Assembly: GCA_965369605.1 (NCBI GenBank)
Contig: CBDURE010000001.1
Span: forward strand, 781 to 64,780
Reading direction: 5' to 3'
Length of the DNA: 64,000 nucleotides
Origin: an uncultured bacterium
GTDB lineage: Bacteria > JAJVIF01 > JAGGVT01
The translations under genes and the position numbers were made by a program. Positions 1 to 58,953 of this stretch are shown piece by piece. Every line of letters starts with the position of its first letter. Position 1 is the first letter of the stretch. The notes below the pieces were generated by a model, which was not told the origin of the DNA, made no database searches, and saw nothing but the letters and a program-made list of their open reading frames with translations.

Positions 1-224
1 CTTACGTCTTCCTCAAGCGCAAAAATAATTTCATCACCCTCACGGCTCCTTTGTGAGTATAGACGTTCCAGCATAATCAGCTTAAGTGGTGTGCCGGCGG
101 GTAATATCAGGTTTTGTTTTTCAGGTGCGGGTTGTGATGTATCGTCATCAGCTGAAGCAATCGTAAAAGACTGACCTGACAACATGATAAGAAAAAGAAA
201 TGCAAACACAGTTACTTTTTTCAT
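1..224 (-). CDS. hypothetical secreted protein, 3'-partial at the window edge. Start is ATG at 222-224 (reverse strand) and the frame runs off the window.
   Basis: Reverse-strand translation gives MKKVTVFAFLFLIMLSGQSFTIASADDD..., a hydrophobic signal peptide followed by an acidic, low-complexity region. The ORF is open to position 1. Confidence 0.35.
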   Translation of the reverse strand, partial: MKKVTVFAFLFLIMLSGQSFTIASADDDTSQPAPEKQNLILPAGTPLKLIMLERLYSQRSREGDEIIFALEEDV

Positions 225-282
225 AGAATCTCTCCCTTAAAATTTGCATCTAGTACTAGTTCATAGATGATATAAACAATTA

Positions 283-762
283 TTAATTCTTGGAAATTGT
301 TCCAGAATAATTGATATCTCCAGAGGCATCACCGCAATAATCAGTGTAGATATTAATGTGTGCAGTTCCGCTTAAGTTGCCAAAGGTCGCCCCTGGAGAA
401 ATAGTGATTTTAAACTGACCTTCACCACTAGACAGGATTGAACCACAATCATAGCTCCAATCCTCTAAAGAGACTGCATTATGAATTGTTAATGTTGTGC
501 CATTATAACTCCATACTAAAGGACCATCAGAACCGATAACAGAATTTTGTGTAATCTGCAAATATCCTGAAACGGAATCTGCAAATTGAAGGGGACCTTC
601 AGGTGTGTTAATAGTGCCGGAAAATGTATACGCAATAGTCCATGTTCCCTCAAGTCCGCTTAAATCTCGTTCAGCAGGCGGTAAGGTTGTTCCTCCACCA
701 CCGCCACAGCTTATTGACACAAACAACATTCCCGTTGCAAGAAGTAATAGAAGTCGTTTCAT
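283..762 (-). CDS. small secreted lipoprotein, hypothetical
   Basis: 159-aa ORF. MKRLLLLLATGMLFVSISCGGGGG has a signal peptide and lipobox Cys, followed by a Gly linker. No recognisable catalytic motif. Confidence 0.55.
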   Translation of the reverse strand: MKRLLLLLATGMLFVSISCGGGGGTTLPPAERDLSGLEGTWTIAYTFSGTINTPEGPLQFADSVSGYLQITQNSVIGSDGPLVWSYNGTTLTIHNAVSLEDWSYDCGSILSSGEGQFKITISPGATFGNLSGTAHINIYTDYCGDASGDINYSGTISKN

Positions 763-1017
763 GACCTTCCTCCGTTATTGATAAGGATTAATGAATTTTA
801 AGGAAACCAAGTATACGGACTCTAAAATGTAAAGCAAGTGATTTAGTTAAGTATTTGGCGTTTTGATGCAATTCGTGGTGACAGATGAAACCTTTCCTCC
901 TATCTAATTTGCTACATAAATAACCAATATCGCGTTGTTATGGTAAAATCTATTTAGGGAAGATGGAGACAATTCTCCGGGAAAAATAACGATTTCCTTA
1001 TGACAGGGAGCGAGCAC

Positions 1018-4000
1018 ATGATCAAACCAACATTTTTTTCATTTCTGATCTTATTTGTGATTTTAATAATCACCGGATGCTCCTCCACTAAATCAACTCC
1101 GGTGATACCTGAAAATCCTCAAGCGGATATTAATTTACCCGCAACCGAACTTAACACAAGCGAATCATCCCGCAGTATCCTTGGCACATGGACACTCTCA
1201 ATAAACCACGAAACCCTCGAAGCTACAGTTGAACCCGACCGTACTCTCAACGCCCATCACAATGTTACAGGCATGATTCCTGACCCATTGATTACGATTA
1301 ACAGCTGGGACCCAATCGAGGAAATTGCCGATGTTGATATTCAGATTCACAATAATACCTGGATAAGTGTGTACGATGTCCGTCTCATCATCTACACCGA
1401 TGTTGCAGGTCACACACTCATCAACGCCGACAACTGGACTCCACTTTGGGATATTCCGGGAGGACAAATCGCAAACCCATTCAAGGCGTATGCAAAACAC
1501 GAAATTAATCGTGCTTACACAGGACTAATGTGGCACCAGGAGAATTTCCGGATTAAATGTCCAGGTTCGAATTACAGCGTCCAATTCGCAATTGATGTCA
1601 GCTATCCGGGTAATTGCGAGGAACCGTATGAGATCAGCAATTTCCAACAAGGCATCCTGTATGATGATATCGGAGCTGATGCTGTAGTTACAGTTGACGT
1701 TTTCGATTGGCAAAATGACGTGTCAGAGGTTTATCTTCATTGCCCTCAGATTACTGATGAACCTCAAACTCCATTTGAATATGATGTATTGAATCGATGG
1801 ATATTGAATCTAATCAATAATACTGGTGCTTTAGAAGGGGAATATATTGGATATCTGATTGCACGATCAGCAAACTCAAGCGCTTTGGCACTATATGATA
1901 GAGTTTCAATAATTGTAACTACTGGAACCGGTGGCCCAGATATACAACCACCAATATGGGATAGTACTGTCGGGATTGAAAGGGCGGTACCAAGATCCGA
2001 GGAGGTTGTGGTGGTTTGGGGAATTGCCACAGATGAACTAAGTCCACCTGTTGAATATTTGTTGTATATTGACACTGATTATAATCCATGGGATCAGGTA
2101 CCAGTAATTCACATCGACAACTCACCTTATACAGTTACCGGTCTTGAAAACGGCAGGGAATACTGGTTTGGCGTCAGATGTCGTGATAACGCTTCACCAC
2201 CCAATATTGATACAAACATTGTTGTTTTATCAGCAATACCCGATTCAGGTTTACCAATCGATCCTGTGATAATCGGCTCATATGAAAAAGCGATCTACAC
2301 GCCCTATGACTTGGCTTTCAGTGGTGATTTCGCGTTTGTTGCCGATGCCGGAGGACCAGTTAAATCTCTTGATATCAGTGATCCCTATTCTATTGAGATA
2401 ACGGGTGAAGTTGGTGTAACGGGAACCCGCAATATAGATGTAGATGAAGAATATGCCTATGCGGTTTCATGGGATAATCCAACAGATACATGGGAAATGT
2501 CTGTAATTGATATCTCAGATCCAACTGATATGCTTACGTTAGGATCATTGCAGGGATCCGGACGACCTTTTGATATCTCAGCCAGCAATGGAATTGTGTG
2601 CATAAGTGGAGAATTAGATGATACATACTATGGTTTTATGACAATTGATGCGTCTATTCCGAGTAATCCTCAAATTAAGTCGTTTTTTCATTTTGATTAC
2701 TGCGGAAGTCTTGAGGTTTCAGGGAACTATGTATATCTCGCTTGCTATCAAGATGGACTACGAATTTATGATATTTCGAATCCGGAAGCTCCTCAGTTTA
2801 TTAGCTCCTTAATCACGGGTAATAATTGCACTAATGTTGAATTAACACCAGGTTTTGCATTTATTATGGGAGGGTGGGATAGACATGGATATGTGGCAGT
2901 CATTAATATAAGTAACCCCCGGAATCCATTTGTTGTTGATGAAGCTTCATTCTTGAGTTATACCATGAATTTATCAGTCAGTATGTATGACATCACTATT
3001 GGTGATGATTTGTTATATGTTGGCTGGAATGACGCCTATGATGATGTTTTGTCGATTTATGATATAAGTAATCCGGGAGACATTGAATACAAAGGCGGTT
3101 TTGAAGGTCACCCTTTATATGGCTGGTCCCCAATCAAAGCTTACAGGGATTTTATGTATTGTTTAACTTCCAGCGGATTGAAAATTATTGATGTTCGAAA
3201 TCCAGTTAATCCAGAAATCGCAGGTGAGTTTAATGGCTATGATGCTCACAGAATCCGTACAGCAGGATCATACGCTTATACTATTGACATTTTTGATCAA
3301 ACCTTGTCGATATTTGATATCAGTGATCAGTTTCATCCCCATTATGTTAATGATATCAGCTTTGGATCTGGCGGTAGTACGTATTGGTACATTGGGATGG
3401 ATATTGCTGATGATAAAGTTTATATTGCCGATCCTGCAACCGGTTTGCTCATTATAGACATAACTTATCCAGTTAACCCTGTGATTATAAGTTTTTTAAG
3501 TTTATCAGAGTATGCAACGCAAATTATTGTTAAAGGTGACTATGCATATATTGTTTTAAGAGATTATGGGATGGCGATTGTTGACATCTCAGATCCTTAC
3601 AATCCGGAACTAATAGAAACTTATTTGCTTGATGGTTTAACGCACATAGATATCAAGGACAACCTGGTTTATTTAATACATGAGCAGGATTATCACGACG
3701 GTTTACACGTTGTTGATATAAGTGATCCACCCAATCCCCAATTATTGGGTATGGTGGAGGGTCTTTTATCGCCAAATGCGATTGGTATTTACAACGATTA
3801 TTGTTTTATTGGCTCCACTAACACTTTATATTGGACAGTGGATATTAGTGATCCTGCAAATCCAGTAATACTATCTGAGTATTCTGGTAGATCTTACTGC
3901 CGATATATCGAACCTGTATTTCCATATGCTTTTTTTGGTTCTTCCAGGTTCCAGGTGATGGATATTTCCACACCCGAATGGCCAACGCTTGTTAATGAAA

Positions 4001-4092
4001 TAAATATCGATTCATCAGATATTGAAATAAATGACAACATTGCTTACCTCGCTTGCGGGGAAGACGGCTTTAAAATCCTTGAACTATGGTGA
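1018..4092 (+). CDS. surface lipoprotein, family A conserved N-terminal module + C-terminal LVIVD-repeat beta-propeller region
   Basis: Signal peptide with lipobox (LIITGCSS). The conserved N-module (TPVIPENPQADINLPA..WTLSINHETLEATV..YDVRLIIYTD..NPFKAYAK..NCEEPY..DVFDWQNDV) is shared with 4086, 6992 and 40373. The C-terminal half carries ~40-aa repeats of the form GNYAYxA..GL.IxDISNPxNP, typical of the LVIVD repeat found in bacterial and archaeal surface proteins. An in-frame ATG at 1000 is also possible. The RBS-like GGGAG precedes 1018. Confidence 0.8.
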   Translation: MIKPTFFSFLILFVILIITGCSSTKSTPVIPENPQADINLPATELNTSESSRSILGTWTLSINHETLEATVEPDRTLNAHHNVTGMIPDPLITINSWDPIEEIADVDIQIHNNTWISVYDVRLIIYTDVAGHTLINADNWTPLWDIPGGQIANPFKAYAKHEINRAYTGLMWHQENFRIKCPGSNYSVQFAIDVSYPGNCEEPYEISNFQQGILYDDIGADAVVTVDVFDWQNDVSEVYLHCPQITDEPQTPFEYDVLNRWILNLINNTGALEGEYIGYLIARSANSSALALYDRVSIIVTTGTGGPDIQPPIWDSTVGIERAVPRSEEVVVVWGIATDELSPPVEYLLYIDTDYNPWDQVPVIHIDNSPYTVTGLENGREYWFGVRCRDNASPPNIDTNIVVLSAIPDSGLPIDPVIIGSYEKAIYTPYDLAFSGDFAFVADAGGPVKSLDISDPYSIEITGEVGVTGTRNIDVDEEYAYAVSWDNPTDTWEMSVIDISDPTDMLTLGSLQGSGRPFDISASNGIVCISGELDDTYYGFMTIDASIPSNPQIKSFFHFDYCGSLEVSGNYVYLACYQDGLRIYDISNPEAPQFISSLITGNNCTNVELTPGFAFIMGGWDRHGYVAVINISNPRNPFVVDEASFLSYTMNLSVSMYDITIGDDLLYVGWNDAYDDVLSIYDISNPGDIEYKGGFEGHPLYGWSPIKAYRDFMYCLTSSGLKIIDVRNPVNPEIAGEFNGYDAHRIRTAGSYAYTIDIFDQTLSIFDISDQFHPHYVNDISFGSGGSTYWYIGMDIADDKVYIADPATGLLIIDITYPVNPVIISFLSLSEYATQIIVKGDYAYIVLRDYGMAIVDISDPYNPELIETYLLDGLTHIDIKDNLVYLIHEQDYHDGLHVVDISDPPNPQLLGMVEGLLSPNAIGIYNDYCFIGSTNTLYWTVDISDPANPVILSEYSGRSYCRYIEPVFPYAFFGSSRFQVMDISTPEWPTLVNEINIDSSDIEINDNIAYLACGEDGFKILELW

Positions 4093-6893
4093 TTAAGAAA
4101 ATGAGAAAGTACTATTTTATAATTGTTATTTTTTTTCTTTTCCTCATTGGATGTTCCTCCGGCAAATCAACTCCGGTGATACCTGAAAACCCTCAAGCGG
4201 ATATTAATTTACCTGCAAACGAACTCAACACAAGCGAATCACTACACAGCATACTCGGCGCATGGACACTCTCAATAAACCACGAAACTCTCGAAGCGAC
4301 AGTCACACCAAACCGCTCACTTGAGAGACATTACAACGTGAAATATCTTATCCCAATTCCCGAAGTATCCATCAACACAATCTATCCAAACTATGTCATC
4401 GACGCGGATGTTACTCTCACGAATCCCTACACTTTCCCCGCCTACGATGTCCGCCTGATAATTTTCACGGACGAATACGGCCATTTCCTCGACAACGCGG
4501 ACGTCTGGACCGACCTCTATGACATCCCAGTCGGGCAGGACATCAACCCGTTCAAGGCATACGCAAAAGACCAACCCAATCGCATTTTCGAAGGTGAAAC
4601 ACAACACACCGAAAATCTTCTGGTTTTCAACCCACCCCCCGGTCACCCAATCCAGTTCGCGATAGATGCATCCTACCCCTGCAACTGCGAAGAACCTTAC
4701 GCCTTTGAGAATTTCCAACAAGATGTTTTACATCCGCATGTCGGAGCAAACGCTGCAGTCACTATTGACGTTCTCGACTGGCAAAATGATGTATCAGAGG
4801 TTTACCTGCAATGCCCGGAAATCACCAACGAACCTGAAACCCCGTTTGAGTTTGTTGCTTCAAACTCATGGAGCTTGAATCTGGTTAATAACACAGGTGC
4901 TCCGGTCGGTGAATATAACGCCATTATCTATGCGAAATCGTCCGGGTCAGGTAATCTTGAATTAATAGACAAGATAAAAATCAGGATATCAACAATTGGA
5001 ATCCCGCTTAGTCCGGTAAATGTAGGTGAATATCGTACACCTTTGGCATCATGCAAAGATGTTTGTATCCACAATGGTTATCTGTTTGCATTGGATTCCT
5101 ATTATGGTTTATATGTGTTAGACATTTCGAATCCTTCTGAACCGGATATTATCAGTAATCTTCCACTGGAACTTGCAGGCTTTTATAACAGCAAATGCAG
5201 ATTAGATTGTTCAGGTAATTATGCGCTCGCAGGTCCCTCACCTAATAATGGAGGTATCTACACTTATTATGTTGTTGATGTTTCTACCCCACGCCACATG
5301 GAAGTCGTGGGTTCAATTGAACTGAATTATGAAATGGTTGATATATCATACGATGGGAATTACGCGGTTTTGGGAGCGGATTCGGCATTACTAGTATTAG
5401 ACTTGAGCACACCCGGTAATCCTTTTGTGGCGGGAACGTTGGAGATACCATCAGAGTATCCCGTTTTACAGGGGAATTATGTTTATACAGATTCACAAAG
5501 GGATTATCAAAATATAATGTCAGTAGTTGATATAAGTGATCCTGGGAATCCTGTCGTTGTGAGTGAATATGATGTGATGGGTGACTTTTTTTCTTCAAAC
5601 TCCGTGGCTTTAGATGGGAACATTCTTTGCGTGGCAAGCAACACACGTCCTGAACCTGATCTTTCGTGTTATCTGGAAACTGTAGATATCAGTGACCCGC
5701 ATAATCCTGTCAGGTTGGATTATATCGAATTCACCGGATACGCTTTTGAAGAACCCGGTGATGAATTTCGAAGTGTTACTATTTCAGGCGGTTACGTTCT
5801 TTTAACCTGGGAATATTGGATTTCCTGGGATTTGTCTGTTTGCAAGATTCAGTTGCTGGACATCAGTAATCCAGGCTATATCCAGGAAAAAGGCTATTGC
5901 GTACAATCTTTTCTCAATGGCGCAATAGACGGTAATTTCTGTTATGTAGATAATTTTGGATTGGGAATTATAGATTTTAATGATCCTGATAATCTGCAAT
6001 ACAAAAGAGGGTTTTACGGGTTGGATGCTACTGAATTAAAAATAACTGATACAGATCTGGCTTATGTAGCAAACAGTTTTTATAACCTTTGCGTATTTGA
6101 TGTGAATAACCCGCAGAACCCACAAAAACTGAGCGATTATAATCTGCAATATTATAACATCAGAGCTTTAGATTCCTTTAATGATTATGTTTTTCTTTCC
6201 CTGTATGAACCCTCCTGGTATTCCCCAGTGCCTGACAGAATTCTGGTACTGGATGCATCCGATCCCTACTCGTTAAGTGAAACTACTTTTCTTGATGTGG
6301 ATTACCCAATATATGATCTAAATTGTAATGGGGAATATTTATTTGTAGCTTCAGATTGGGGACTTGTTATATTTGATGTTTCGAATCCTCAAATTTTGGG
6401 TCTGACAGGTTCTATCGCTACAGAAATGCTTAACAAAATAACTCAGCAGGATAATTATGTTTATGCTGTAAAGTGGGGATCTTATGGGAAATTCATAGTA
6501 TTTGATATTTCAGATCCCTCAAACCCATGGATTGCTAGTGAAACAGATTGTTATTGTCCATATGATCTTGAAGTTAAAGATAACCTTGCATTTCTTCTTG
6601 GAAAGGGTTATCTGAAAATCTACGATATCTCAACTCCAGCTAATCCGGTTGAAATTACTGAATTTGAACCGCTTGATGATTCTAATTATAGACTTACTGT
6701 CTCGGGGAATTTTATTTATCTTGGTAGGACAGGCGAAATATGGGATATTACGGATCTCCAAAACCCGCAGTATCTAAGCCAACTGGACATTCCTCAACAA
6801 ACTTTATTGAGATCTTATGATTATGAAATAGTCGATAATTATGCATTTTTAAGCTGCGGTGGATTCGGTCTGCAGGTAAACAAGTTGTGGTGA
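4086..6893 (+). CDS. surface lipoprotein, family A N-terminal module + LVIVD-repeat region (paralog)
   Basis: Start overlaps the stop of the upstream gene (ATGGTGA), suggesting translational coupling. Lipobox LIGCSS. The N-module is ~60% identical to 1018 and nearly identical to 6992. C-terminal repeats of the form xNYAxVxxxxxLxVxDxSxPxxP are LVIVD-like. Confidence 0.8.
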   Translation: MVIKKMRKYYFIIVIFFLFLIGCSSGKSTPVIPENPQADINLPANELNTSESLHSILGAWTLSINHETLEATVTPNRSLERHYNVKYLIPIPEVSINTIYPNYVIDADVTLTNPYTFPAYDVRLIIFTDEYGHFLDNADVWTDLYDIPVGQDINPFKAYAKDQPNRIFEGETQHTENLLVFNPPPGHPIQFAIDASYPCNCEEPYAFENFQQDVLHPHVGANAAVTIDVLDWQNDVSEVYLQCPEITNEPETPFEFVASNSWSLNLVNNTGAPVGEYNAIIYAKSSGSGNLELIDKIKIRISTIGIPLSPVNVGEYRTPLASCKDVCIHNGYLFALDSYYGLYVLDISNPSEPDIISNLPLELAGFYNSKCRLDCSGNYALAGPSPNNGGIYTYYVVDVSTPRHMEVVGSIELNYEMVDISYDGNYAVLGADSALLVLDLSTPGNPFVAGTLEIPSEYPVLQGNYVYTDSQRDYQNIMSVVDISDPGNPVVVSEYDVMGDFFSSNSVALDGNILCVASNTRPEPDLSCYLETVDISDPHNPVRLDYIEFTGYAFEEPGDEFRSVTISGGYVLLTWEYWISWDLSVCKIQLLDISNPGYIQEKGYCVQSFLNGAIDGNFCYVDNFGLGIIDFNDPDNLQYKRGFYGLDATELKITDTDLAYVANSFYNLCVFDVNNPQNPQKLSDYNLQYYNIRALDSFNDYVFLSLYEPSWYSPVPDRILVLDASDPYSLSETTFLDVDYPIYDLNCNGEYLFVASDWGLVIFDVSNPQILGLTGSIATEMLNKITQQDNYVYAVKWGSYGKFIVFDISDPSNPWIASETDCYCPYDLEVKDNLAFLLGKGYLKIYDISTPANPVEITEFEPLDDSNYRLTVSGNFIYLGRTGEIWDITDLQNPQYLSQLDIPQQTLLRSYDYEIVDNYAFLSCGGFGLQVNKLW

Positions 6894-6991
6894 CCAGGTT
6901 AAAAGACTAAAACAATTTTTCATTTTTTTTAAGGATGACGGAGGCAATTCTCCGGAAACTCCGGGATTTTGTTATGACAGGGAGCGGGAAA

Positions 6992-9289
6992 ATGATTAAA
7001 TCAACATTTTTTTCATTTCTGATCTTATTTCTGATTTTAATAATCGCCGGATGCTCCTCCACTAAATCAACTCCTGTGATACCTGAAAACCCTCAAGCGG
7101 ATATTAATTTACCTGCAAACGAACTCAACACAAGCGAATCACTACACAGCATACTCGGCGCATGGACACTCTCAATAAACCACGAAACTCTCGAAGCGAC
7201 AGTCACACCAAACCGCTCACTTGAGAGACATTACAACGTGAAATATCTTATCCCAATTCCCGAAGTATCCATCAACACAATCTATCCAAACTATGTCATC
7301 GATGCTGATGTTACTCTCACAAATCCGTATATTTTCCACGCCTATGATCTCCGGTTAATTATCTTCACTGACGAATACGATCATTTCCTAAACAACGCGG
7401 ACGCCTGGACTGACCTCTATGACATCCCAGACGGTCAGGATATCAACCCGTTCAAAGCATACGCAAAAGACCAACCCAACCGCATCTTCGAGGGAGAATC
7501 ACAACATACTGAAAATCTTCTGGTTTTCAACCCACCACCCGGTCACCCAATCCAGTTCGCGATAGATGCATCATTCCCAAATAACTGCGAAGAACCATAC
7601 GAAATTTCAGGCTTCACTCAGGATGACCTTTTCGATCAGGCTGGCGCAGTAGCTAATGTAGAAATAACGGTTAAATCATGGGCTGATAATCCATGTGATG
7701 TTTATCTATATTGCCCGATTATATGTGGTGCAGGATTACTTGAATTCAATCATATTGCGGATGATATCTACGGCGCAAACCTTGTTAATAATACCGGAGC
7801 ATATTCAGGCACTTATGAGGGTTTTATCGTTGCGTATTCCTACAAACACGCTCAAATTGCTCTATATAATGATGTGATGATATCAATTGAACCGAGTAAA
7901 AATGGTTGGGCTCGAACCTGGGGAAGCACAGGCAGTGAGGAGGGCAGCAAGGATGTCGTTGTTGATGATTTCGGCAATATCTATGTGTGCGGTTGGTTCG
8001 AAAATACTATCGACCTGGACCCCGGTCCGGGAGAGGATATCCACTTTTCGCTGGGGCAGTGGGATACTTATGTCAGCAAGTTTAATTCCGATGGCGGTTT
8101 TATCTGGGGGCGTACATGGGGCAGCCCCGGTGAATATGATACTCCAAGGGGTGTCATACTCGATAATGATGGTGGTGTGTATATATGCGGTGGATTCCAT
8201 TACACCGTGGATTTCGATCCCGGCCCCGGTGAAGCATTATTCACTGCTGAAAATAATAGCAACCGTGATGCTTACCTCAATAAACTTGACACTGATGGAA
8301 ATTATGTCTGGACAAAAACATGGGGTGGAATCGGTGGTTGGGATGTCGCTTACGATGTCCAGTTTGATGGTATCGATAAACTCTATGTAATTGGTTTATT
8401 CAATGAAACAGTGGATTTCGATCCGAATTCAGGCTATGACTCTCGCAGCGCTGAAGGAGAATATGATTCCTACCTTTGCCAGCTCGATATTCATGGAAAT
8501 TACTACTGGGTTCAGGCCTGGGGCGGTTCTCACATGACAGTTGCCACAAGCCTGGCATACGATGGAAATGCGAGCCTTTACATAACCGGATGGTTTGATG
8601 GAAACGTCGATTTTGATCCATCGAATGGTGTTGATCAACATGAATCCAGTGGAAGTTGGGATGCATACCTGAGTAAATTCAATACATCAGGTGATTTCGA
8701 ATGGGTCGGAGTTTGGGGCGATCCGGAACCTCAGCATGGTGTACGTGTTGACACTGACAGTTTTGGCAGTGTTTATGTGGCTGGTCATTTTTTTGGGACA
8801 GTTGATTTTGATCACGGTGCTGGAATTGATGTGCGAACGTCAAATGGTAACTTTGATTCATATGTAAGTAAATTAACACCCTTTGGTGAACAGGTCTGGA
8901 CTCTTGCCTGGGGCGCTGAAGAAAATGACTGTTGTTACGGGATAGGTTTGGATGAAAGCGATAACCTTTATGTGACAGGCTCCTTCAGGAGTACAGTTGA
9001 TCTCGATCCGGGTCCGGGCATGGAAGAAATAACATCGAATGGAAACGCAGACATCTTTCTAACACGATTCACGCCAGAAGGTGATTTTATCTGGTCACGC
9101 GCATGGGGTGGTGCAGGACACGACATGGGTTATGAACTCATCACCGACTGCAATGGAAATATTTTTGTTAATGGAAACTATTCCGATGTAGTGGATTTCG
9201 ATCCCGGACCCAATACAGAAGAACATACCTCAAACGGTCAACACGACGCATATATCATAAAACTACTGCCTAACGGTTATTGGGAATAA
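6992..9289 (+). CDS. surface lipoprotein, family A N-terminal module + C-terminal SBBP-type beta-propeller repeats
   Basis: The ORF is open from 6935, but the conserved MIKSTFFSFLILF... signal peptide starts at 6992. The N-module nucleotide sequence is 100% identical to 4086 over ~230 bp. The C-terminus has ~8 repeats of the form DxxGNIYVxGxFxxTVDFDPGPG...DAYLSKFNxxGxxxWxxxWG, typical of SBBP beta-propeller repeats. Confidence 0.8.
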   Translation: MIKSTFFSFLILFLILIIAGCSSTKSTPVIPENPQADINLPANELNTSESLHSILGAWTLSINHETLEATVTPNRSLERHYNVKYLIPIPEVSINTIYPNYVIDADVTLTNPYIFHAYDLRLIIFTDEYDHFLNNADAWTDLYDIPDGQDINPFKAYAKDQPNRIFEGESQHTENLLVFNPPPGHPIQFAIDASFPNNCEEPYEISGFTQDDLFDQAGAVANVEITVKSWADNPCDVYLYCPIICGAGLLEFNHIADDIYGANLVNNTGAYSGTYEGFIVAYSYKHAQIALYNDVMISIEPSKNGWARTWGSTGSEEGSKDVVVDDFGNIYVCGWFENTIDLDPGPGEDIHFSLGQWDTYVSKFNSDGGFIWGRTWGSPGEYDTPRGVILDNDGGVYICGGFHYTVDFDPGPGEALFTAENNSNRDAYLNKLDTDGNYVWTKTWGGIGGWDVAYDVQFDGIDKLYVIGLFNETVDFDPNSGYDSRSAEGEYDSYLCQLDIHGNYYWVQAWGGSHMTVATSLAYDGNASLYITGWFDGNVDFDPSNGVDQHESSGSWDAYLSKFNTSGDFEWVGVWGDPEPQHGVRVDTDSFGSVYVAGHFFGTVDFDHGAGIDVRTSNGNFDSYVSKLTPFGEQVWTLAWGAEENDCCYGIGLDESDNLYVTGSFRSTVDLDPGPGMEEITSNGNADIFLTRFTPEGDFIWSRAWGGAGHDMGYELITDCNGNIFVNGNYSDVVDFDPGPNTEEHTSNGQHDAYIIKLLPNGYWE

Positions 9290-9355
9290 ATACGGCAGGT
9301 GTCAGCCAACACATTTTCCCGGGAAATGGATTCCCGGGCTACACTGGTTTGGTGG

Positions 9356-9628
9356 TTAGGTGTCAGCCATGGTGACAGCCACGTTGGGTATGTACTCACG
9401 CATGTCCTTGTAATATTCATCACGCCCAAACTTATTTATTATTACATGAAGCGGAGCTTTACCTTTACGAAATCCCTCAACACTTGAGTTTTCAATCATG
9501 TTTTGATCGAATTCCGATTTAAGGTTGAGTGCATCTTCGTTTTCCAGTACGATGGACACTAGAAAACTGATCTCGGTTAATTGTTGTATGTTATGTGTTA
9601 ATTTCATCAATATTACAAATAAATACAC
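9356..9628 (-). pseudogene. tig: trigger factor N-terminal (ribosome-binding domain) remnant
   Basis: The 90-aa ORF contains the trigger-factor signature GFRKGKAPLHVIINKFG in the right position relative to the N-terminus. It stops after ~85 residues, and no downstream sequence could encode the PPIase or C-terminal domains, because the 6992 gene ends at 9289. Confidence 0.4.
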
Positions 9629-9652
9629 TCTGAATAGTCTTTATTAAATGTA

Positions 9653-11050
9653 TTAACCTAGAGAAACAATATACGATTCATTCATATTTTGATTTAGATT
9701 GTCATTGAATGTGCATACAATTCTGCCATCAGGTGCGGGTAAAATCTGCCAGAAACATAATCGGGCATTGTCAGGAATAATTTCTAAGTCCTGAATATTT
9801 ATTTCCCATATTGTAACACCATCTTCACCTACCAAGGAAATACTATTTGAATGGCTATATAAAATCTTCCCATCCGAATATACTACTACCGCAGACATAT
9901 ACTGAAATTCTTCTATACTATTTGACCATTGTGCGCTTCCATCTTTGTTGATAGCTTTAAAACTATAAAAGCAACTATTCACCGTTTTTGACTGTGAATT
10001 CTTCATTGTGGGATCATTTGTGGAATAGATTAAAACATCACCGCTACTGTTTACTCCAGCTACTCTTGTTTGTTTTAGTATTGAGTTTAATTCTGATTTT
10101 ACGATTGAACCATCTTGGATTTCAATTAACTCAAACTCATCATAGGTTGATATAGCGATTTGTCCGTTGGATGAAACAAGTACTTGAGTAAATAAATCTA
10201 ACGAAAAAGTGCTATTGTTAATGTTATATTCCCAAATTGGTTCTAAATATTCTGTATAGCATGTTAAGGTATCACTCTTTAATTGTATCCAACCACCTGA
10301 GTCAATCTCCATAGCTTTTATAAAACTTGAGTTAGATATCCTTGGTTTCTTGTTATTGATCTTATTGACAAAATCATTTAAAGCCAACTGATTAAGTAGT
10401 GCTCCATCAGACATTGCATAAGTATTATATAGACTGGAACCTCCGTGACTTACTGGCATCATTATTCGATTGTTCGATATTCTCCATGCACCGGGTTCTG
10501 AATAAATTGCGGTGGCAGGTTCTGTTCTCCAGAGAGTATTTAGATCTAAATCAACACATTCCAAACTCACTAAGTGGTTTATACTTTCACGGAATTCATG
10601 GTTGATAAATATTATTACATTTTTGGTTAATGCAATTGGAGGATACATCTGATAGCTAGGTTGTGATTTAGACAATAGTACTGAACCTTCTTTTGACAAT
10701 TTAACAATATCAAATGGAGCTTTTAAATCAATTAATATTTTATCACTAATATTACTTTGAGTATATTTTAAAAACCATGTATGGCCGTTAGAATCAACAA
10801 TAAGACCACTGTTTAGTTTTATATTCTCCTTAACATACCATTCAACAGATGGTATGTTAGTAGGAGCTGTATAATCACATGCAATTGAATATGTTGACTT
10901 CAAGGGTTGATACTTCCAAGAATTATATAATAATTCTGAATTATTTAATGAGCGATGAAGAATACGACTAGGCAATATATCATCTCTTGGAATAGTGCAA
11001 CTAGTAAATAGGAATATTAATAGTAAAAGGATTAAGAATGAGTATCGCAT
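9653..11050 (-). CDS. hypothetical lipoprotein (possibly beta-propeller-like)
   Basis: 465-aa ORF. MRYSFLILLLLIFLFTSCTIP has a signal peptide and lipobox. It sits immediately downstream of the RHS-family gene on the same strand. Confidence 0.6.
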   Translation of the reverse strand: MRYSFLILLLLIFLFTSCTIPRDDILPSRILHRSLNNSELLYNSWKYQPLKSTYSIACDYTAPTNIPSVEWYVKENIKLNSGLIVDSNGHTWFLKYTQSNISDKILIDLKAPFDIVKLSKEGSVLLSKSQPSYQMYPPIALTKNVIIFINHEFRESINHLVSLECVDLDLNTLWRTEPATAIYSEPGAWRISNNRIMMPVSHGGSSLYNTYAMSDGALLNQLALNDFVNKINNKKPRISNSSFIKAMEIDSGGWIQLKSDTLTCYTEYLEPIWEYNINNSTFSLDLFTQVLVSSNGQIAISTYDEFELIEIQDGSIVKSELNSILKQTRVAGVNSSGDVLIYSTNDPTMKNSQSKTVNSCFYSFKAINKDGSAQWSNSIEEFQYMSAVVVYSDGKILYSHSNSISLVGEDGVTIWEINIQDLEIIPDNARLCFWQILPAPDGRIVCTFNDNLNQNMNESYIVSLG

Positions 11051-11075
11051 TTCAATCTACCTCTGGAAAATTCTA

Positions 11076-12926
11076 TTATATATAAATCGAATAAGGTTCA
11101 CTCAATCCGACAAAAAGATCGGGTCTTGCTTCATAACATTCCTTCGTAATTCCAGCACAATAACCAGGGAGACCATAAAATAAAAGATTAATATCAGAAC
11201 AACTTTCTGGTACAAACATTAAACTCCTAAAAGAAGGCGAACATGAGCTTATTTTACGACCCAAACAACCAATACATGCTTCAACGGTGCATGTACAAAT
11301 CATTCCACAATTCGGGCAATTAGCATCAAAAGAGTCATTCCTAATATCAGCAAAGAAAACGCAATGAGGAGCCTCTCTAACTAAACAAGCACAATACTTC
11401 TCACTAGCGCAAGACCTACAGTTGTCATAATTATCTTCTATTTTACCTACATTACATTGATATGCCGCCAAAAGCTGGTGAGACAAGCCGGGTAGTGGAA
11501 GAGGAGTTCCCGCAAGACATCCAACATAAAAATCATAAGCAGCATCTAAACACTTTCTAAGTTTGAGGCCTGGCCAGCGGAAAAATTTATGTACGCATTC
11601 TTCTTGATCCGATATCCACAGCTTATAACACCACAAGGGATCTCTACCCCATCTCGCATCAAGAGCGAGTGAAATACGCTTTATCTCATTGTTGCATTGT
11701 TCCATCTTTTCTTCCAACAGCAGTTTAACATTTAAACATTCCAATACATCACTGAGCCATATAAGTGCGCATTCAGCTCTTATTAAAAACATGTTATATT
11801 CGCTACAATCCAATCCAGTTCTATCAGTTGAAATAGTTGGCTTATTATTTGCATATCTATAGGGATTTAATCCAGCTGGATTTTCGCTAAGTTGACTAAT
11901 GTAATTCTGGCTGGCTGAGACCATCAGCGGTTCCCTCTGCAGGAAGATACCGAGGAATGGGAGGTAGTGGCGATGGTCGGTGTGATAGAGAGCCTGGTTG
12001 TCGTTGGTGGAACCGGAGTCACAATAGTCCTCTACACGAGTTGAGATATATCGCATGAAGTGCGCCCCGTTGGAATGTGCGTCGTCGAAATCAAGCCATG
12101 CGCCGTAACCGTCGGTGTTGTACCGCTCAGTCGTGACAGTGTATGCACCGCCGGAATACGTCACATTCACAATCGCCCGGACACTCCCCTGCGCGTCCTT
12201 CACCAGATAGCCCTCCTCATCGGGATCGGAATTGAAATCGATATCCTTCAGGTATCCGGTCTCACCGACATAGAGATCGTACGCGATGTCGCGCGAAACA
12301 ACAACTCCCTCCCTGGTCTCATCCCAAATCTGCATCAACGTCCTGCCGTCATGATAGAAAACCTGCGTGTAAGATGTTTCACCCACCGTCCAGGTCTTTT
12401 CCCGAATTCGCCCAAGCGCATCCCACTTCAGAGTGCGAGTGTCACCAGAATTGATTTGGTAAGTACTCAGGCGGTTCTTTCTGTCGTATGTGAAATCCAT
12501 TTGCAAAAGGTCGAACTGACTGGGGCCACTGGTAACAGTAACCGCAGGCAACTGAGTCATATTACCGTTAGCATCATACGTTGGCACAAGATTGCTGCTC
12601 GCACTACCACCACCTGAGACCGCATTGTCCCAATCGGTAATGTGCGCACCTTTGGAATATGTGATTGTGTATTCGATCGAGTCATCACCCTCCAGAATCT
12701 TCTTTTTGGTCATGTTTCCGTTTATATCGTAGGTGTACTCCCGTGCACGGTAAACATCCATTCTCTCGGTAGTAGAATTATACTTGAGATATCTTTCCTC
12801 CACCAGCCTGTCGCGGTAATCGTATTCGTAAATGGCGTTATACTGAGGCCAGGTGTCTTCGCGTGTATTCCACACAGTCTGACGGACTCTGCGTCCCTTT
12901 TTGTCATATTTATACTCAACAGCCAC
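11076..12926 (-). CDS. RHS/YD-repeat family protein (short, no N-terminal secretion domain) with Cys-rich C-terminal toxin-like domain
   Basis: YD repeats are present (YEYDYRDRL, YTYDINGNM, YDANGNM, FTYDRKNRL). The RHS core ends in NPYRYANNKPTISTDRTGL, which matches the conserved PxRYxxNNP...DPxGL core terminus. This is followed by ~245 aa of unrelated sequence with many Cys pairs (CxxC/CxC). There is no signal peptide. The ORF cannot extend 5' because the upstream gene ends 82 bp away. Confidence 0.7.
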   Translation of the reverse strand: MAVEYKYDKKGRRVRQTVWNTREDTWPQYNAIYEYDYRDRLVEERYLKYNSTTERMDVYRAREYTYDINGNMTKKKILEGDDSIEYTITYSKGAHITDWDNAVSGGGSASSNLVPTYDANGNMTQLPAVTVTSGPSQFDLLQMDFTYDRKNRLSTYQINSGDTRTLKWDALGRIREKTWTVGETSYTQVFYHDGRTLMQIWDETREGVVVSRDIAYDLYVGETGYLKDIDFNSDPDEEGYLVKDAQGSVRAIVNVTYSGGAYTVTTERYNTDGYGAWLDFDDAHSNGAHFMRYISTRVEDYCDSGSTNDNQALYHTDHRHYLPFLGIFLQREPLMVSASQNYISQLSENPAGLNPYRYANNKPTISTDRTGLDCSEYNMFLIRAECALIWLSDVLECLNVKLLLEEKMEQCNNEIKRISLALDARWGRDPLWCYKLWISDQEECVHKFFRWPGLKLRKCLDAAYDFYVGCLAGTPLPLPGLSHQLLAAYQCNVGKIEDNYDNCRSCASEKYCACLVREAPHCVFFADIRNDSFDANCPNCGMICTCTVEACIGCLGRKISSCSPSFRSLMFVPESCSDINLLFYGLPGYCAGITKECYEARPDLFVGLSEPYSIYI

Positions 12927-28341: not shown

Positions 28342-29013
28342 TTGCGCTCATGGCGAGTAGATAGTACACTCTCTTTTGTGAAGAAAGAGATGATAACCTT
28401 AGCCGATAAACAAATTAGAGATGCACTTCATCGTAAGACACTCCGCAAACACCATCGTGCGCCAAATACACTTGTAGTGGATGAATTGGGATTGATGCAC
28501 GGCAAATGTCGAGCAGATATTGCTGTTATTAATGGTCATCTCTTTGGATATGAGATTAAGAGCGATGAAGACACTCTTTCAAGACTTCCTGAACAAGTCA
28601 GAGCGTATTGTGAAGTCTTCGATCGCGTAACTGTTGTAGTCGGGAAGAAGCATGTGAATTTAGTCAGAAATATTGTCCCGGATTGGTGGGGCATCACTGT
28701 TGCCCAAAGAGGGGAACGAGGTGCGGTTAATTTTGAATCTGAAAGATCTGGTCAATTCAACAAGAATCTAAATCTCTTTTCAATTGCTCAGTTGTTGTGG
28801 AAAAGCGAGGTCAGTCAAATTCTTAGCGAATTGGGTGTACCATCGAAACTGTTACGGCAAAGACGTTCTGAACTCTACCGACTGCTCGTAGAGTTGATGA
28901 AACCTAATGACTTGCACCGCAAAGTTAGGGATTGCCTAAGGAGTCGTAAAAATTGGAGATGTCATCCACAACCTTCTCAATATGATGATTCGTACCCACC
29001 CATCTCCAAGTAG
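28342..29013 (+). CDS. PD-(D/E)xK nuclease-fold protein (sce7726/MmcB-like family)
   Basis: The motif block RADIAVINGHLFGYEIKSDEDT fits the D...E.K catalytic core of the PD-(D/E)xK fold, and the size is right for this family. The gene is convergent with the beta-protein gene and overlaps it by ~89 bp. Confidence 0.55.
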   Translation: MRSWRVDSTLSFVKKEMITLADKQIRDALHRKTLRKHHRAPNTLVVDELGLMHGKCRADIAVINGHLFGYEIKSDEDTLSRLPEQVRAYCEVFDRVTVVVGKKHVNLVRNIVPDWWGITVAQRGERGAVNFESERSGQFNKNLNLFSIAQLLWKSEVSQILSELGVPSKLLRQRRSELYRLLVELMKPNDLHRKVRDCLRSRKNWRCHPQPSQYDDSYPPISK

Positions 29014-30049
29014 TTAGATTTCCTGTGCTTTCTTGCCCACTTCCGCACTCAGCAATATAATTATCACCGCAGGAGAAATCTTCACCAGAATAATGTGGTG
29101 ATTTTGTGACAATCTGGCAAAGATCCCTAAATTGCTTGTAACCATTTTTGCGGACATTTGTACCTTTTACAATTAGCCAAAAATCTTGTGTTGTATACCT
29201 GATTGTTGCAGAAGGTGTTAGGAATCGCATATCACGCTGGATAACTTTTGGATGATTTATTCCATAGTCACCAAAAGTAGGTAATCTGCCGTTATCAGCA
29301 GTTAAGATTTCAATAATGCGTTTATACAATAGCCATTCAAATCTATTCTTAAGAGTTTGGCCCTGCTTAATCCCCCCCATTGATTCAGGAAATGAAGTTC
29401 CACAGAGTATAAATGAGCGCCAGTGATGGATGTTGGGCAAATTTTTAATAATAGAAACACAAAGTTTAGCGAACCCTTCAAGTGGTTCAAAATTTGGAGA
29501 TCCAAGATCAAGCAGCAGATCGCATTGCTCAGCTTTCAAGTCGTTCATTCCAAGAATCTTTTTAATAAATTTTGTTAACTCAGGTTTGGCTGATTCCTCG
29601 ATGTTAATACGAAAGCATAATCCGTTATTATCTTTAGAAGTGATTGTTTTAATTTGTGACATGAATGCTTTATCACTGTTAGGCCTGATTACTGGTGTTG
29701 CCTTGCATTTATTTTTTCTTAATTCATCGAAGATAAACTTCAGAGGGTGGCGATTACGAGATAATCGCACATCTTGGCCAAGGAGTGAGATATCTAGAAA
29801 ACAAGGCTTAGCACCCCATTTTTCTATTATCCTCTTCGCAAATGGTTTAAGATGCTCATCGATAGTTTTACTAGGTTCTCGTGTCTCGAAATCAAATCCT
29901 ATCTCGGGCACTTCTATCAATGGAGTAATAGAAGCTTTGGCTTCTTCTGACAAGCGCAGTACAGCTTGATACTCTCCTTGTTTCCATCGAAGACATGGAA
30001 CGTAATGTTTATGGTCAAATTCCAATTTTTTACCTCCGTTTCTATCCAA
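28925..30049 (-). CDS. 'beta protein' family protein (sce7725-like), partner of the PD-(D/E)xK gene
   Basis: The N-terminal HYVPCLRWKQGEYQAVLRL matches the YVP.LK.K.GE..AL signature I associate with the beta-protein family (PF14350). Its start overlaps the upstream XRE-ImmA gene by 8 nt, suggesting an operon. Confidence 0.5.
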   Translation of the reverse strand: MDRNGGKKLEFDHKHYVPCLRWKQGEYQAVLRLSEEAKASITPLIEVPEIGFDFETREPSKTIDEHLKPFAKRIIEKWGAKPCFLDISLLGQDVRLSRNRHPLKFIFDELRKNKCKATPVIRPNSDKAFMSQIKTITSKDNNGLCFRINIEESAKPELTKFIKKILGMNDLKAEQCDLLLDLGSPNFEPLEGFAKLCVSIIKNLPNIHHWRSFILCGTSFPESMGGIKQGQTLKNRFEWLLYKRIIEILTADNGRLPTFGDYGINHPKVIQRDMRFLTPSATIRYTTQDFWLIVKGTNVRKNGYKQFRDLCQIVTKSPHYSGEDFSCGDNYIAECGSGQESTGNLTTWRWVGTNHHIEKVVDDISNFYDSLGNP

Positions 30050-44810: not shown

Positions 44811-44925
44811 TAGATTCCGGGTCAAGCCCGGAATGACATTAGCTTGTCATTGCATAGTAGCTTGTCATTGCATAGCAGCTTGTCATTGCATAGTAGCTTG
44901 TCATTCCGGCGAAAGCCGGAATCCA
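44811..44925. repeat. composite hairpin/tandem-repeat element (GTCATTC family): terminal hairpins flanking 3.5 copies of an 18-bp unit
   Basis: attccggg-tcaagc-cccggaat, then (agcttgtcattgcatagt)x3.5, then gtcattccggc-gaaa-gccggaat. An inverted copy lies at 58864-58953. Confidence 0.7.
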
Positions 44926-58863: not shown

Positions 58864-58953
58864 GGATTCCGGCTTTCGCCGGAATGACAAATTCTGGAAT
58901 GACAAATTCTGGGATGACAAGATAATGTCATTCCGGGCTTGCCCCGGAATCCA
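58864..58953. repeat. composite hairpin/tandem-repeat element (GTCATTC family), inverted relative to 44811-44925
   Basis: attccggc-tttc-gccggaat is the exact reverse complement of 44903-44922. It is followed by (ggaatgacaaattct)x2.7 and the hairpin attccggg-cttg-ccccggaat. Confidence 0.7.

Follow-up and report, generated by a model that had tools for sequence, protein, structure and literature searches.

Genes and modules of the array

The 64,000-nucleotide stretch of contig CBDURE010000001.1, from an uncultured bacterium, was analysed at its full length and is referred to here as the window. Based on its list of open reading frames (ORFs), three co-oriented lipoprotein genes occupy positions 1000-9300 as a tandem array. 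These genes are named g1, g2 and g3, and a fourth member of the same family, located elsewhere in the window, is named g4. A scan of the window with a hidden Markov model (HMM) finds these four family members, all complete. Protein lengths are given in amino acids (aa).

1018 to 4092, + strand: g1, ORF for a 1024-aa lipoprotein (Pfam LVIVD, E = 9e-43), identical to database protein P0140
4101 to 6893, + strand: g2, ORF for a 930-aa lipoprotein; alternative starts at 4086 and 4089 overlap the g1 stop codon
6992 to 9289, + strand: g3, ORF for a 765-aa mosaic lipoprotein, identical to database protein P0141
40373 to 43057, + strand: g4, the solitary fourth family member, with an LVIVD propeller; the stable control

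The genes g1 and g2 abut or overlap, and the gap between g2 and g3 is about 100 bp. All three array genes are complete; every one has a start codon and a lipobox signal peptide of its own. A Shine-Dalgarno sequence, GGGAG, lies 8 nt 5' of the g1 ATG at 1018, and database protein P0139 is the g2 protein called from the GTG at 4089. The signal peptides of g1, g2 and g3 each end in GCSS. As read from the translations, the lipoboxes (consensus [LVI][ASTVI][GAS]C) are ITGC in g1, where the Cys codon is at 1078, LIGC in g2 and IAGC in g3. The lipobox of g4, SFGC, is off the consensus at the first position.

In g1, the signal peptide and lipobox are followed by a tether and by two domains termed D1 (type A) and D2; an FN3-like segment then leads into an LVIVD beta-propeller. 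g2 has its own, unrelated signal peptide and the shared tether; its D1 is of type B, its D2 is related to the g1 D2, and its head is an LVIVD propeller. g3 combines a 5' untranslated region (5' UTR) and signal peptide of the g1 type with a tether and D1 of the g2 type, and continues into a unique D2 and an SBBP propeller. The Pfam scan bears out the heads assigned by the first-pass annotation, LVIVD in g1 and g2 and SBBP in g3. LVIVD (PF08309) scores 143.8 bits in g1, 103.7 in g2 and 422.4 in g4, and SBBP (PF06739) scores 46.8 bits in g3; the gathering cut-offs are 20.2 and 20.5 bits, respectively. The g3 head also weakly resembles the Leptospira LipL53 SBBP family (NF047494), at 114 bits against a cut-off of 400 and in the propeller only.

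The region common to g1, g2 and g3, here called the N-module, is about 280 aa long and has no match in Pfam, NCBIfam or PDB. An AlphaFold model of the g2 N-module (19 sequences; mean predicted local distance difference test score, pLDDT, 72) contains a disordered tether (residues 1-33), a beta-sandwich D1 (35-175) and a second beta-sandwich D2 (184-285). Between D1 and D2 lies a low-confidence hinge (178-183), which is the NCEEPY motif. Foldseek searches with this model returned generic tandem Ig-like folds only. Across the family alignments the N, C, E and P residues of the motif are invariant; its codons in the window are as follows.

1612 to 1629 (g1), 4683 to 4700 (g2), 7583 to 7600 (g3) and 40964 to 40981 (g4), + strand: NCEEPY codons, from the family alignments

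The N-module, in which an NCEEPY hinge joins two beta-sandwich domains behind a tether, has not been described before. Following the model, each array protein would start with a signal peptide and a disordered tether about 30 aa long, continue in a D1-D2 stalk and end in a variable propeller head. We regard g1, g2 and g3 as tandem paralogues of a lineage-specific lipoprotein family, presumably exposed on the cell surface.

Block structure and silent-site divergence

Self-BLAST of the array and a three-way alignment of g1, g2 and g3 uphold, with small corrections, the mosaic structure that had been described for these genes. Divergence at synonymous sites (pS, dS) and nonsynonymous sites (dN) is given throughout as Nei-Gojobori estimates. 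The shared blocks are listed below, all on the + strand.

4176 to 4402: exact 227-bp tract, g2 copy; covers N-module residues 10-85, most of the tether and the first D1 strands
7076 to 7302: exact 227-bp tract, g3 copy (self-BLAST and alignment)
953 to 1100: block I, g1 copy; 5' UTR and signal peptide, with dS 0.08 against g3 in the coding part
6928 to 7074: block I, g3 copy; counterpart of g1 953-1100
1075 to 1234 (g1), 4149 to 4308 (g2) and 7049 to 7208 (g3): tether block, 87-98% aa identity among all three
4403 to 4701 (g2) and 7303 to 7601 (g3): older shared D1 block, 86.6% identical, with its 3' end at NCEEPY
4702 to 5000: D2 of g2, closest to the D2 of g1 (1630-1930) and 36% identical in aa to the D2 of g3 (7601-7900)

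The exact tract between g2 and g3 had been placed at 4183-4410 and 7088-7315 with a length of about 230 bp. It is real, and the corrected length is 227 bp. The tract lies in an ungapped block of the two genes (4149-4701 and 7049-7601) with 91.9% identity, and all 45 g2/g3 mismatches fall outside it, 31 of them at third codon positions. In 200,000 permutations of the 45 mismatches, no run exceeded 168 bp and none reached the observed 227 bp; analytically, the bound is 6e-10. Considering third codon positions alone, the analytic bound for the tract is 4e-7. High identity does extend up to NCEEPY as had been claimed, but past the tract it amounts to 86.6% (40 mismatches in 299 bp) rather than about 90%. 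Directly after the motif, identity drops to 38-50% per 50 columns, in agreement with the complete divergence reported there. In the model, this 3' breakpoint falls on the hinge predicted between the two domains (residues 178-183).

The similarity between g1 and g3 extends over 953-1229 and 6928-7203 with 87.4% identity. An identity of about 95% had been given for their 5' regions; this is correct for the coding part (95.2% for 1018-1100 against 6992-7074) but not for the 5' UTR (74% for 961-1017), and the range taken whole is 81.5% identical. g3 switches to the g2-like pattern between 7063 and 7090. The protein identity of g1 to the others, put at about 60%, is 58-59% for the N-modules of g1 and g2, with 87% in the tether, 51% in D1 and 55% in D2. 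At the DNA level the tether block is 80-96% identical among the three genes, after which g1 falls to about 50%. The tethers of the window are at most 51% identical to those of family members that were fetched before the syntenic locus described below, and 93-96% identical to those of h1 and h2, the two array genes of that locus.

The region homologous to the g1 5' UTR also contains, 58 nt past the g2 stop codon, a terminator-like hairpin followed by a T-run (6951-6965), which is missing from the g1 copy of the UTR. Judging by its sequence, the hairpin could terminate a g1-g2 transcript or attenuate g3.

Informative sites, counted by the pair of genes that agree, are distributed along g3 as follows.

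g3 6910 to 7083: g1 = g3 at 52 sites, g2 = g3 at 8, g1 = g2 at 5
g3 7084 to 7580: g1 = g3 at 7 sites, g2 = g3 at 166, g1 = g2 at 16
g3 7606 to 7805: g1 = g3 at 19 sites, g2 = g3 at 17, g1 = g2 at 68

The patterns are heterogeneous over the three blocks (chi-square 316, P = 3e-67), and the topology switches twice along the gene, from (g1,g3) to (g2,g3) and then to (g1,g2). g3 is a three-block mosaic. In segment identity matrices, the D1 of g2 and g3 clusters with those of L001b/c, L027 and L018x, family members from other contigs, at 68-75%.

Silent sites separate the blocks by age. Of the roughly 52 synonymous sites in the exact tract, none differs; a window rounded to whole codons (4176-4403) takes in a single synonymous difference at 4403, just beyond the tract. 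In the 300 bp after the tract, g2 and g3 differ with pS 0.446, dS 0.68 and dN 0.055, and at this flank rate the chance of no synonymous difference in the tract is about 4e-14. The dS of the signal peptide is 0.08 between g1 and g3, and that of the tether is 0.08 between g2 and g3 and about 0.4 between g1 and either of them. D1 is under strong constraint (dN/dS about 0.08), and its dS over the whole segment is 0.47 for g2-g3 and saturated in all other pairs. In D2, and in everything beyond NCEEPY, synonymous sites are saturated in every pair, g2-g3 included. Because of this saturation, the NCEEPY boundary is a real breakpoint of ancestry and not the onset of faster protein evolution. Fast evolution of the g3 D2 as the sole cause was rejected, since dS jumps from 0.68 to saturation at the boundary.

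Silent divergence is graded across the blocks, from 0 through 0.08, about 0.4 and 0.68 to saturation, and records at least four exchange events of different ages. The ortholog of g4 in AUK107, a metagenome-assembled genome (MAG), served as calibrator. It lies on contig L008 in conserved synteny and is 83% identical in aa, with pS 0.07-0.39. On this scale, the lineage had already split from its nearest known relatives when at least the two youngest events took place. In the LVIVD region of g4 itself, at 42065-42184, identity to the AUK107 ortholog is 57-63% as compared with 80-98% elsewhere, which may reflect a small replaced patch or intragenic repeat conversion.

The syntenic locus and the wider family

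The syntenic counterpart of the array is on L058, a contig of JGI sample 3300042089, which was reached through the profile-search proteins P0142 and P0143. Its right flank is 85-91% identical to the window over 7.9 kb, and its left flank is 87.8% identical as far as the end of the g1 tether. L058 has two array genes, h1 and h2, as compared with three in the window. Both h1 and h2 carry the UTR and signal peptide of the g1/g3 type and the shared tether, together with a D1 of the g2/g3 type (89-95% aa identity) and a D2 of the g2 type (76-80%). The propellers of g1, g2, g3, h1 and h2, in contrast to these shared stalks, are mutually 15-29% identical in aa and saturated in pS. h1 and h2 are 90% identical to each other over 884 nt, including an exact run of 65 nt, and their signal peptides are identical and differ from those of g1 and g3 at pS 0.20-0.28. 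In the tract region g2 equals g3, yet both differ from h1 and h2 at pS 0.33-0.44, the normal interspecies level, and so the tract was homogenised after the split from the L058 genome. In the older D1 block the four copies (g2, g3, h1 and h2) are about equidistant, with pS 0.35-0.52, and similarity within a genome is not in excess there. A different gene number and unrelated heads on the same stalks indicate that the array exchanges modules on a short timescale. That genomes with 85-91% identical flanks share their stalks and none of five heads marks these arrays as hot spots of surface-protein innovation.

A comparable arrangement was seen on contig L001, where three members stand in tandem; its syntenic AUK107 counterpart, contig L027, has a single one. 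L001b resembles L001c up to the motif HPIQFA and L001a thereafter. The positional orthologs L001c and L027 are 96% identical in D1 and 37% in the heads, with flanks of 88-93%. The D1 of g1 is 84% identical to that of P0154, which has an SBBP head, and 83% identical to that of P0163, which has an LVIVD head. With the same D1 type found under different heads, stalk and head are decoupled in other genomes too.

A word-indexed search retrieved 18 homologues of the N-module, and a full profile search retrieved 1,620 family representatives, of which 465 had E ≤ 1e-30; the total of about 1,600 refers to representatives at 50% clustering. Among GTDB genomes the family is concentrated in few MAGs, with at least a dozen fetched loci each and the members often in tandem. 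The three largest MAGs contain at least 23, 17 and 17 copies. In the sequences searched, the family is rare overall and very large locally. D1 is the most conserved segment throughout. The nearest relative of the source organism is MAG AUK107, with 85-90% DNA identity. The best matches of its AroB (90%, then 73%, 62%, 53% and then below 46%) indicate that the organism belongs to a sparsely sampled lineage; it is probably free-living. A further SBBP-type member, with a D1 73% identical to the g4 D1, is found on a 5.6-kb contig binned as 'Nanoarchaeota archaeon' (L005, JAHIRU010000075.1), which is probably a mis-binned bacterial contig.

Several members are interrupted. In L011:7346-9730 a TAG falls within NCEEPY (NCM*PY), and the member in L018:9785-11030 has a frameshift and a short duplication. 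Selenocysteine insertion or other recoding at the NCEEPY cysteine was rejected, as the TAG in L011 replaces a Glu codon and the L018 case is a frameshift with duplication. The interrupted members in L011, L018 and L001 are pseudogenes or assembly errors in a repeat-rich family. Arrays of this family are likely trouble spots for metagenome assembly and binning.

Origin of the mosaics

The observations to be explained are the tracts with their breakpoints, the gradient of ages at silent sites, the topologies that conflict between segments and an array whose content differs in a related genome. Homology-driven gene conversion together with unequal crossing-over among the tandem paralogues is very probably the explanation. 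Non-reciprocal conversion patches would homogenise the 5' modules, namely UTR, signal peptide, tether and D1, and, at the conserved islands formed by the tether and the NCEEPY hinge, crossovers of the unequal or homeologous kind would alter the gene number and join a stalk to a new head. In the earliest of four putative events, D1 would have become common to g2 and g3 with a 3' breakpoint at NCEEPY (dS 0.68). The tether would then have been homogenised in all three genes (dS about 0.4), roughly at the age of the split from the sister genomes, followed by exchange of the signal-peptide region between g1 and g3 (dS 0.08) and, most recently, of the 227-bp patch between g2 and g3 (dS 0). The enzymology may be RecA-type homologous recombination. 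Diversifying the binding heads while anchor and stalk are kept constant may be of benefit, and the breakpoints that survive would cluster at module boundaries, the tether and the D1/D2 hinge. The tract now forms a direct repeat with copies 2.9 kb apart, and recombination between them could delete the g2 body or fuse g2 with g3. The mechanism, conversion plus unequal crossing-over within a tandem family of surface proteins, is textbook, and the array adds one more example of the process; as a locus, it offers an unusually clean and datable series of conversion events.

Several observations weigh against this explanation or narrow its reach. The perfection of the 227-bp tract rests on a single assembly, and no near-identical contig was found in the collections scanned. 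Look-ups of the exact g1, g2 and g3 proteins returned no record. A metagenome scan with the g3 N-terminus returned one distant match (24% identity) and no population variants. For the D2-SBBP portion of g3 no donor was found; its D2 is matched at 44-46% at best. The body of g1 may have been lost in the L058 genome or gained in the window, either way. The joints in L001 (7237-12572) carry deletions of 10 nt and 116 nt that share their first nucleotide, after CAATTCGC. The L001 frameshift and deletion lie exactly at recombination joints, which points to imprecise recombination there or to misassembly of such arrays. High protein identity in D1 is by itself weak evidence because D1 is the most conserved segment family-wide, and it is the silent sites that carry the argument. 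In other MAGs, the majority of tandem pairs show pS saturation across tether, D1 and D2, so that recent exchange is episodic and not general, and the high D1 protein identity in such pairs reflects purifying selection and not conversion. Recent conversion as a property of the whole family was rejected on these grounds. For the array in the window, the 'ongoing segmental recombination' of the first-pass annotation stands as recurrent and recent exchange, based on the graded silent divergence, the two topology switches and the content of L058.

The same annotation had likened the genes to antigenic-variation or contingency loci. The likeness is one of analogy only, as silent cassettes, repeats, invertible elements, a recombinase and a reverse transcriptase were all sought and not found. 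A programmed system, with dedicated cassette exchange at the tether and NCEEPY hinge and frequent head swaps within the population, would account for breakpoints that recur near NCEEPY and HPIQFA in two genomes, for the complete turnover of heads between close relatives, for gene numbers of 3 vs 2 and 3 vs 1, and for 5' regions that are conserved or homogenised. Breakpoints at the hinge, however, would also be expected if selection favoured recombinants that are able to fold. Elsewhere, silent sites show most arrays to be static, and the window has four family members only. The HMM scan of the window finds no family fragments, there are no silent, truncated or promoterless cassettes, and a Pfam scan of the 40 larger ORFs of the 64-kb window finds no recombinase, invertase or reverse transcriptase. 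Simple-sequence repeats (units of 2-6 nt with ≥5 copies) are absent from 801-9400, and inverted repeats of ≥30 bp number 0 in 1-12000. In the array, Tandem Repeats Finder reports only a 12-nt x 2.1 repeat in a signal peptide, and the longest homopolymers are T7-T8. The g2/g3 mismatches involve A at 4 of 45 positions in g2 and 16 of 45 in g3, without adenine bias. A programmed origin of the mosaics is therefore unlikely. It is similarly doubtful that the family arrays as a whole are a dedicated head-swapping system of a free-living, deep-branching bacterium, with the 5' modules and NCEEPY as built-in recombination sites. If they were, the lineage could rapidly re-equip a constant anchor and stalk with other heads, for example for phage evasion or a change of substrate or partner, which would be a functional analogue of antigenic variation outside a host-immune context.

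An assembly artefact would place the origin of the tract, or of the 5' half of g3, in collapse or bubble-popping, in polishing with mis-mapped reads, or in a chimeric join of paralogues or strains. In favour of this, the source looks like an uncultured organism, its nearest relative is a MAG at 85-90% DNA identity, the family is multicopy, and L001 has a frameshift and a deletion exactly at block joints. Against this, both copies of the tract are flanked on both sides by homologous but diverged sequence, and the g2 and g3 ORFs are intact and in frame. The graded dS of the older blocks (0.08, 0.4 and 0.68) cannot arise in this way, and the independently assembled L058 has the same kind of homogenised 5' modules, as in h1 and h2. 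Collapse requires near-identical copies and, as the flanks have pS 0.45, would still imply recent conversion. An artefact might account for how perfect the tract is, but it does not account for the overall mosaic, and as a general explanation we judge it very unlikely. Constraint on the sequence, in which purifying selection acting on the protein or on a nucleic-acid element (RNA or DNA) keeps the tract and the 5' blocks alike, gains something from the low dN/dS of D1 and from the translational signals that can sit in 5' coding regions. The tract, however, is identical at its synonymous sites while differing at pS 0.33-0.44 from the orthologous h1 and h2, and it mostly encodes the disordered tether, which is ≤51% identical to that of members fetched before L058. 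Its RNA has no unusual fold (z-score 0.04), and an Rfam scan of the window gave no match. Constraint as the cause is thus highly improbable.

Among documented systems, the closest analogues appear to be the Helicobacter pylori bab/sab paralogues and prokaryotic concerted evolution, with vls-type systems a looser likeness. In H. pylori, the complete, expressed paralogues babA/babB/babC and sabA/sabB/hopQ swap segments by intragenomic conversion that is thought to be RecA-dependent, yielding chimeric genes and a copy number and locus occupancy that vary between strains (PMC3960876). As in g1-g3, complete paralogues exchange segments. The bab/sab genes, however, lie at dispersed loci, encode beta-barrel outer-membrane proteins and undergo dinucleotide-repeat phase variation, whereas g1-g3 are tandem lipoprotein genes without such repeats; allelic mid-regions are replaced in the former and whole propeller heads in the array. 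In prokaryotic concerted evolution, paralogues within a genome are more alike than their age predicts, through gene conversion (e.g. PMC6053082). The array tether, signal peptide and tract fit this definition. Classical cases homogenise whole genes (tuf, rRNA), whereas in the array only the 5' modules are homogenised and the 3' heads are kept different or replaced. Borrelia vlsE/vls, Neisseria pilE/pilS and Treponema tprK are examples of antigenic variation by segmental gene conversion (PMC9159922). They resemble the array in the short non-reciprocal tracts within a surface lipoprotein or adhesin gene and in the conserved sequence at the tract bounds, and differ in having one expression site with silent truncated cassettes and variation within one infection, whereas every copy in the array is complete.

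A likeness also exists with Leptospira ligA/ligB and Mycoplasma vsp/vlp, lipoprotein paralogues whose upstream sequence, signal peptide and first domains are near-identical and whose remaining sequence is entirely different. The stalks of the lig, vsp and vlp proteins are Big domains or repeats, however, and the stalk domains of the array differ. Site-specific inversion or promoter repeats operate in the vsp and vlp families. In polymorphic toxin loci (Rhs, CdiA), C-terminal regions are displaced via recombination at a conserved junction motif. The array shares with these the conserved N-terminal body and swappable C-terminal modules, and an RHS-repeat gene adjoins it. The array heads, however, are beta-propeller binding domains and not toxins, and the array has no immunity genes and no orphan C-terminal fragments.

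The sequence next to the array, and some further features of the window, are as follows.

9653 to 12926, - strand: variable flank downstream of the array, with an ORFan lipoprotein (9653-11050) and an RHS-repeat protein (11076-12926)

No homologue of ORF 9653-11050 was found by homology search among 5.8 billion proteins, and the RHS-repeat protein has no obvious N-terminus. The GC content of 10001-12000, within this flank, is low at 35.5%. At the same position L058 instead carries a 321-aa ORF and a HepT/MNT toxin-antitoxin pair.

Upstream of g4, between it and a glutamate dehydrogenase gene, an 8-nt tandem repeat (AGTTAGCA x 7.6) occupies the intergenic positions 40194-40254. Arrays 85-97% identical to it occur in many AUK107 loci (L008, L011, L012, L017, L027, L029 and L044), and the repeat is apparently an intergenic element dispersed in this lineage. 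The segment 33607-38215 is missing from the otherwise syntenic AUK107 contig L008. It contains a 563-aa ORF without Pfam match and most of a 1020-aa DUF4062-NACHT/STAND-TPR protein (35573-38635), and looks like a defence-type island inserted between glutamate dehydrogenase paralogues at 32040-33305 (- strand) and 38834-40192 (+ strand). A cluster of three genes at 28925-31865 (- strand) encodes a 'Beta protein' (PF14350), a helix-turn-helix (HTH) and IrrE/Peptidase_M78 protein and a DUF6932 protein, and may be a phage-defence or toxin-antitoxin-like module. Scans for transfer RNA (tRNA) genes and for terminators and promoters gave nothing specific. Short intergenic tandem repeats are also present at 44840-44905 (18-nt unit x 3.7) and 58881-58920 (15-nt unit x 2.7).

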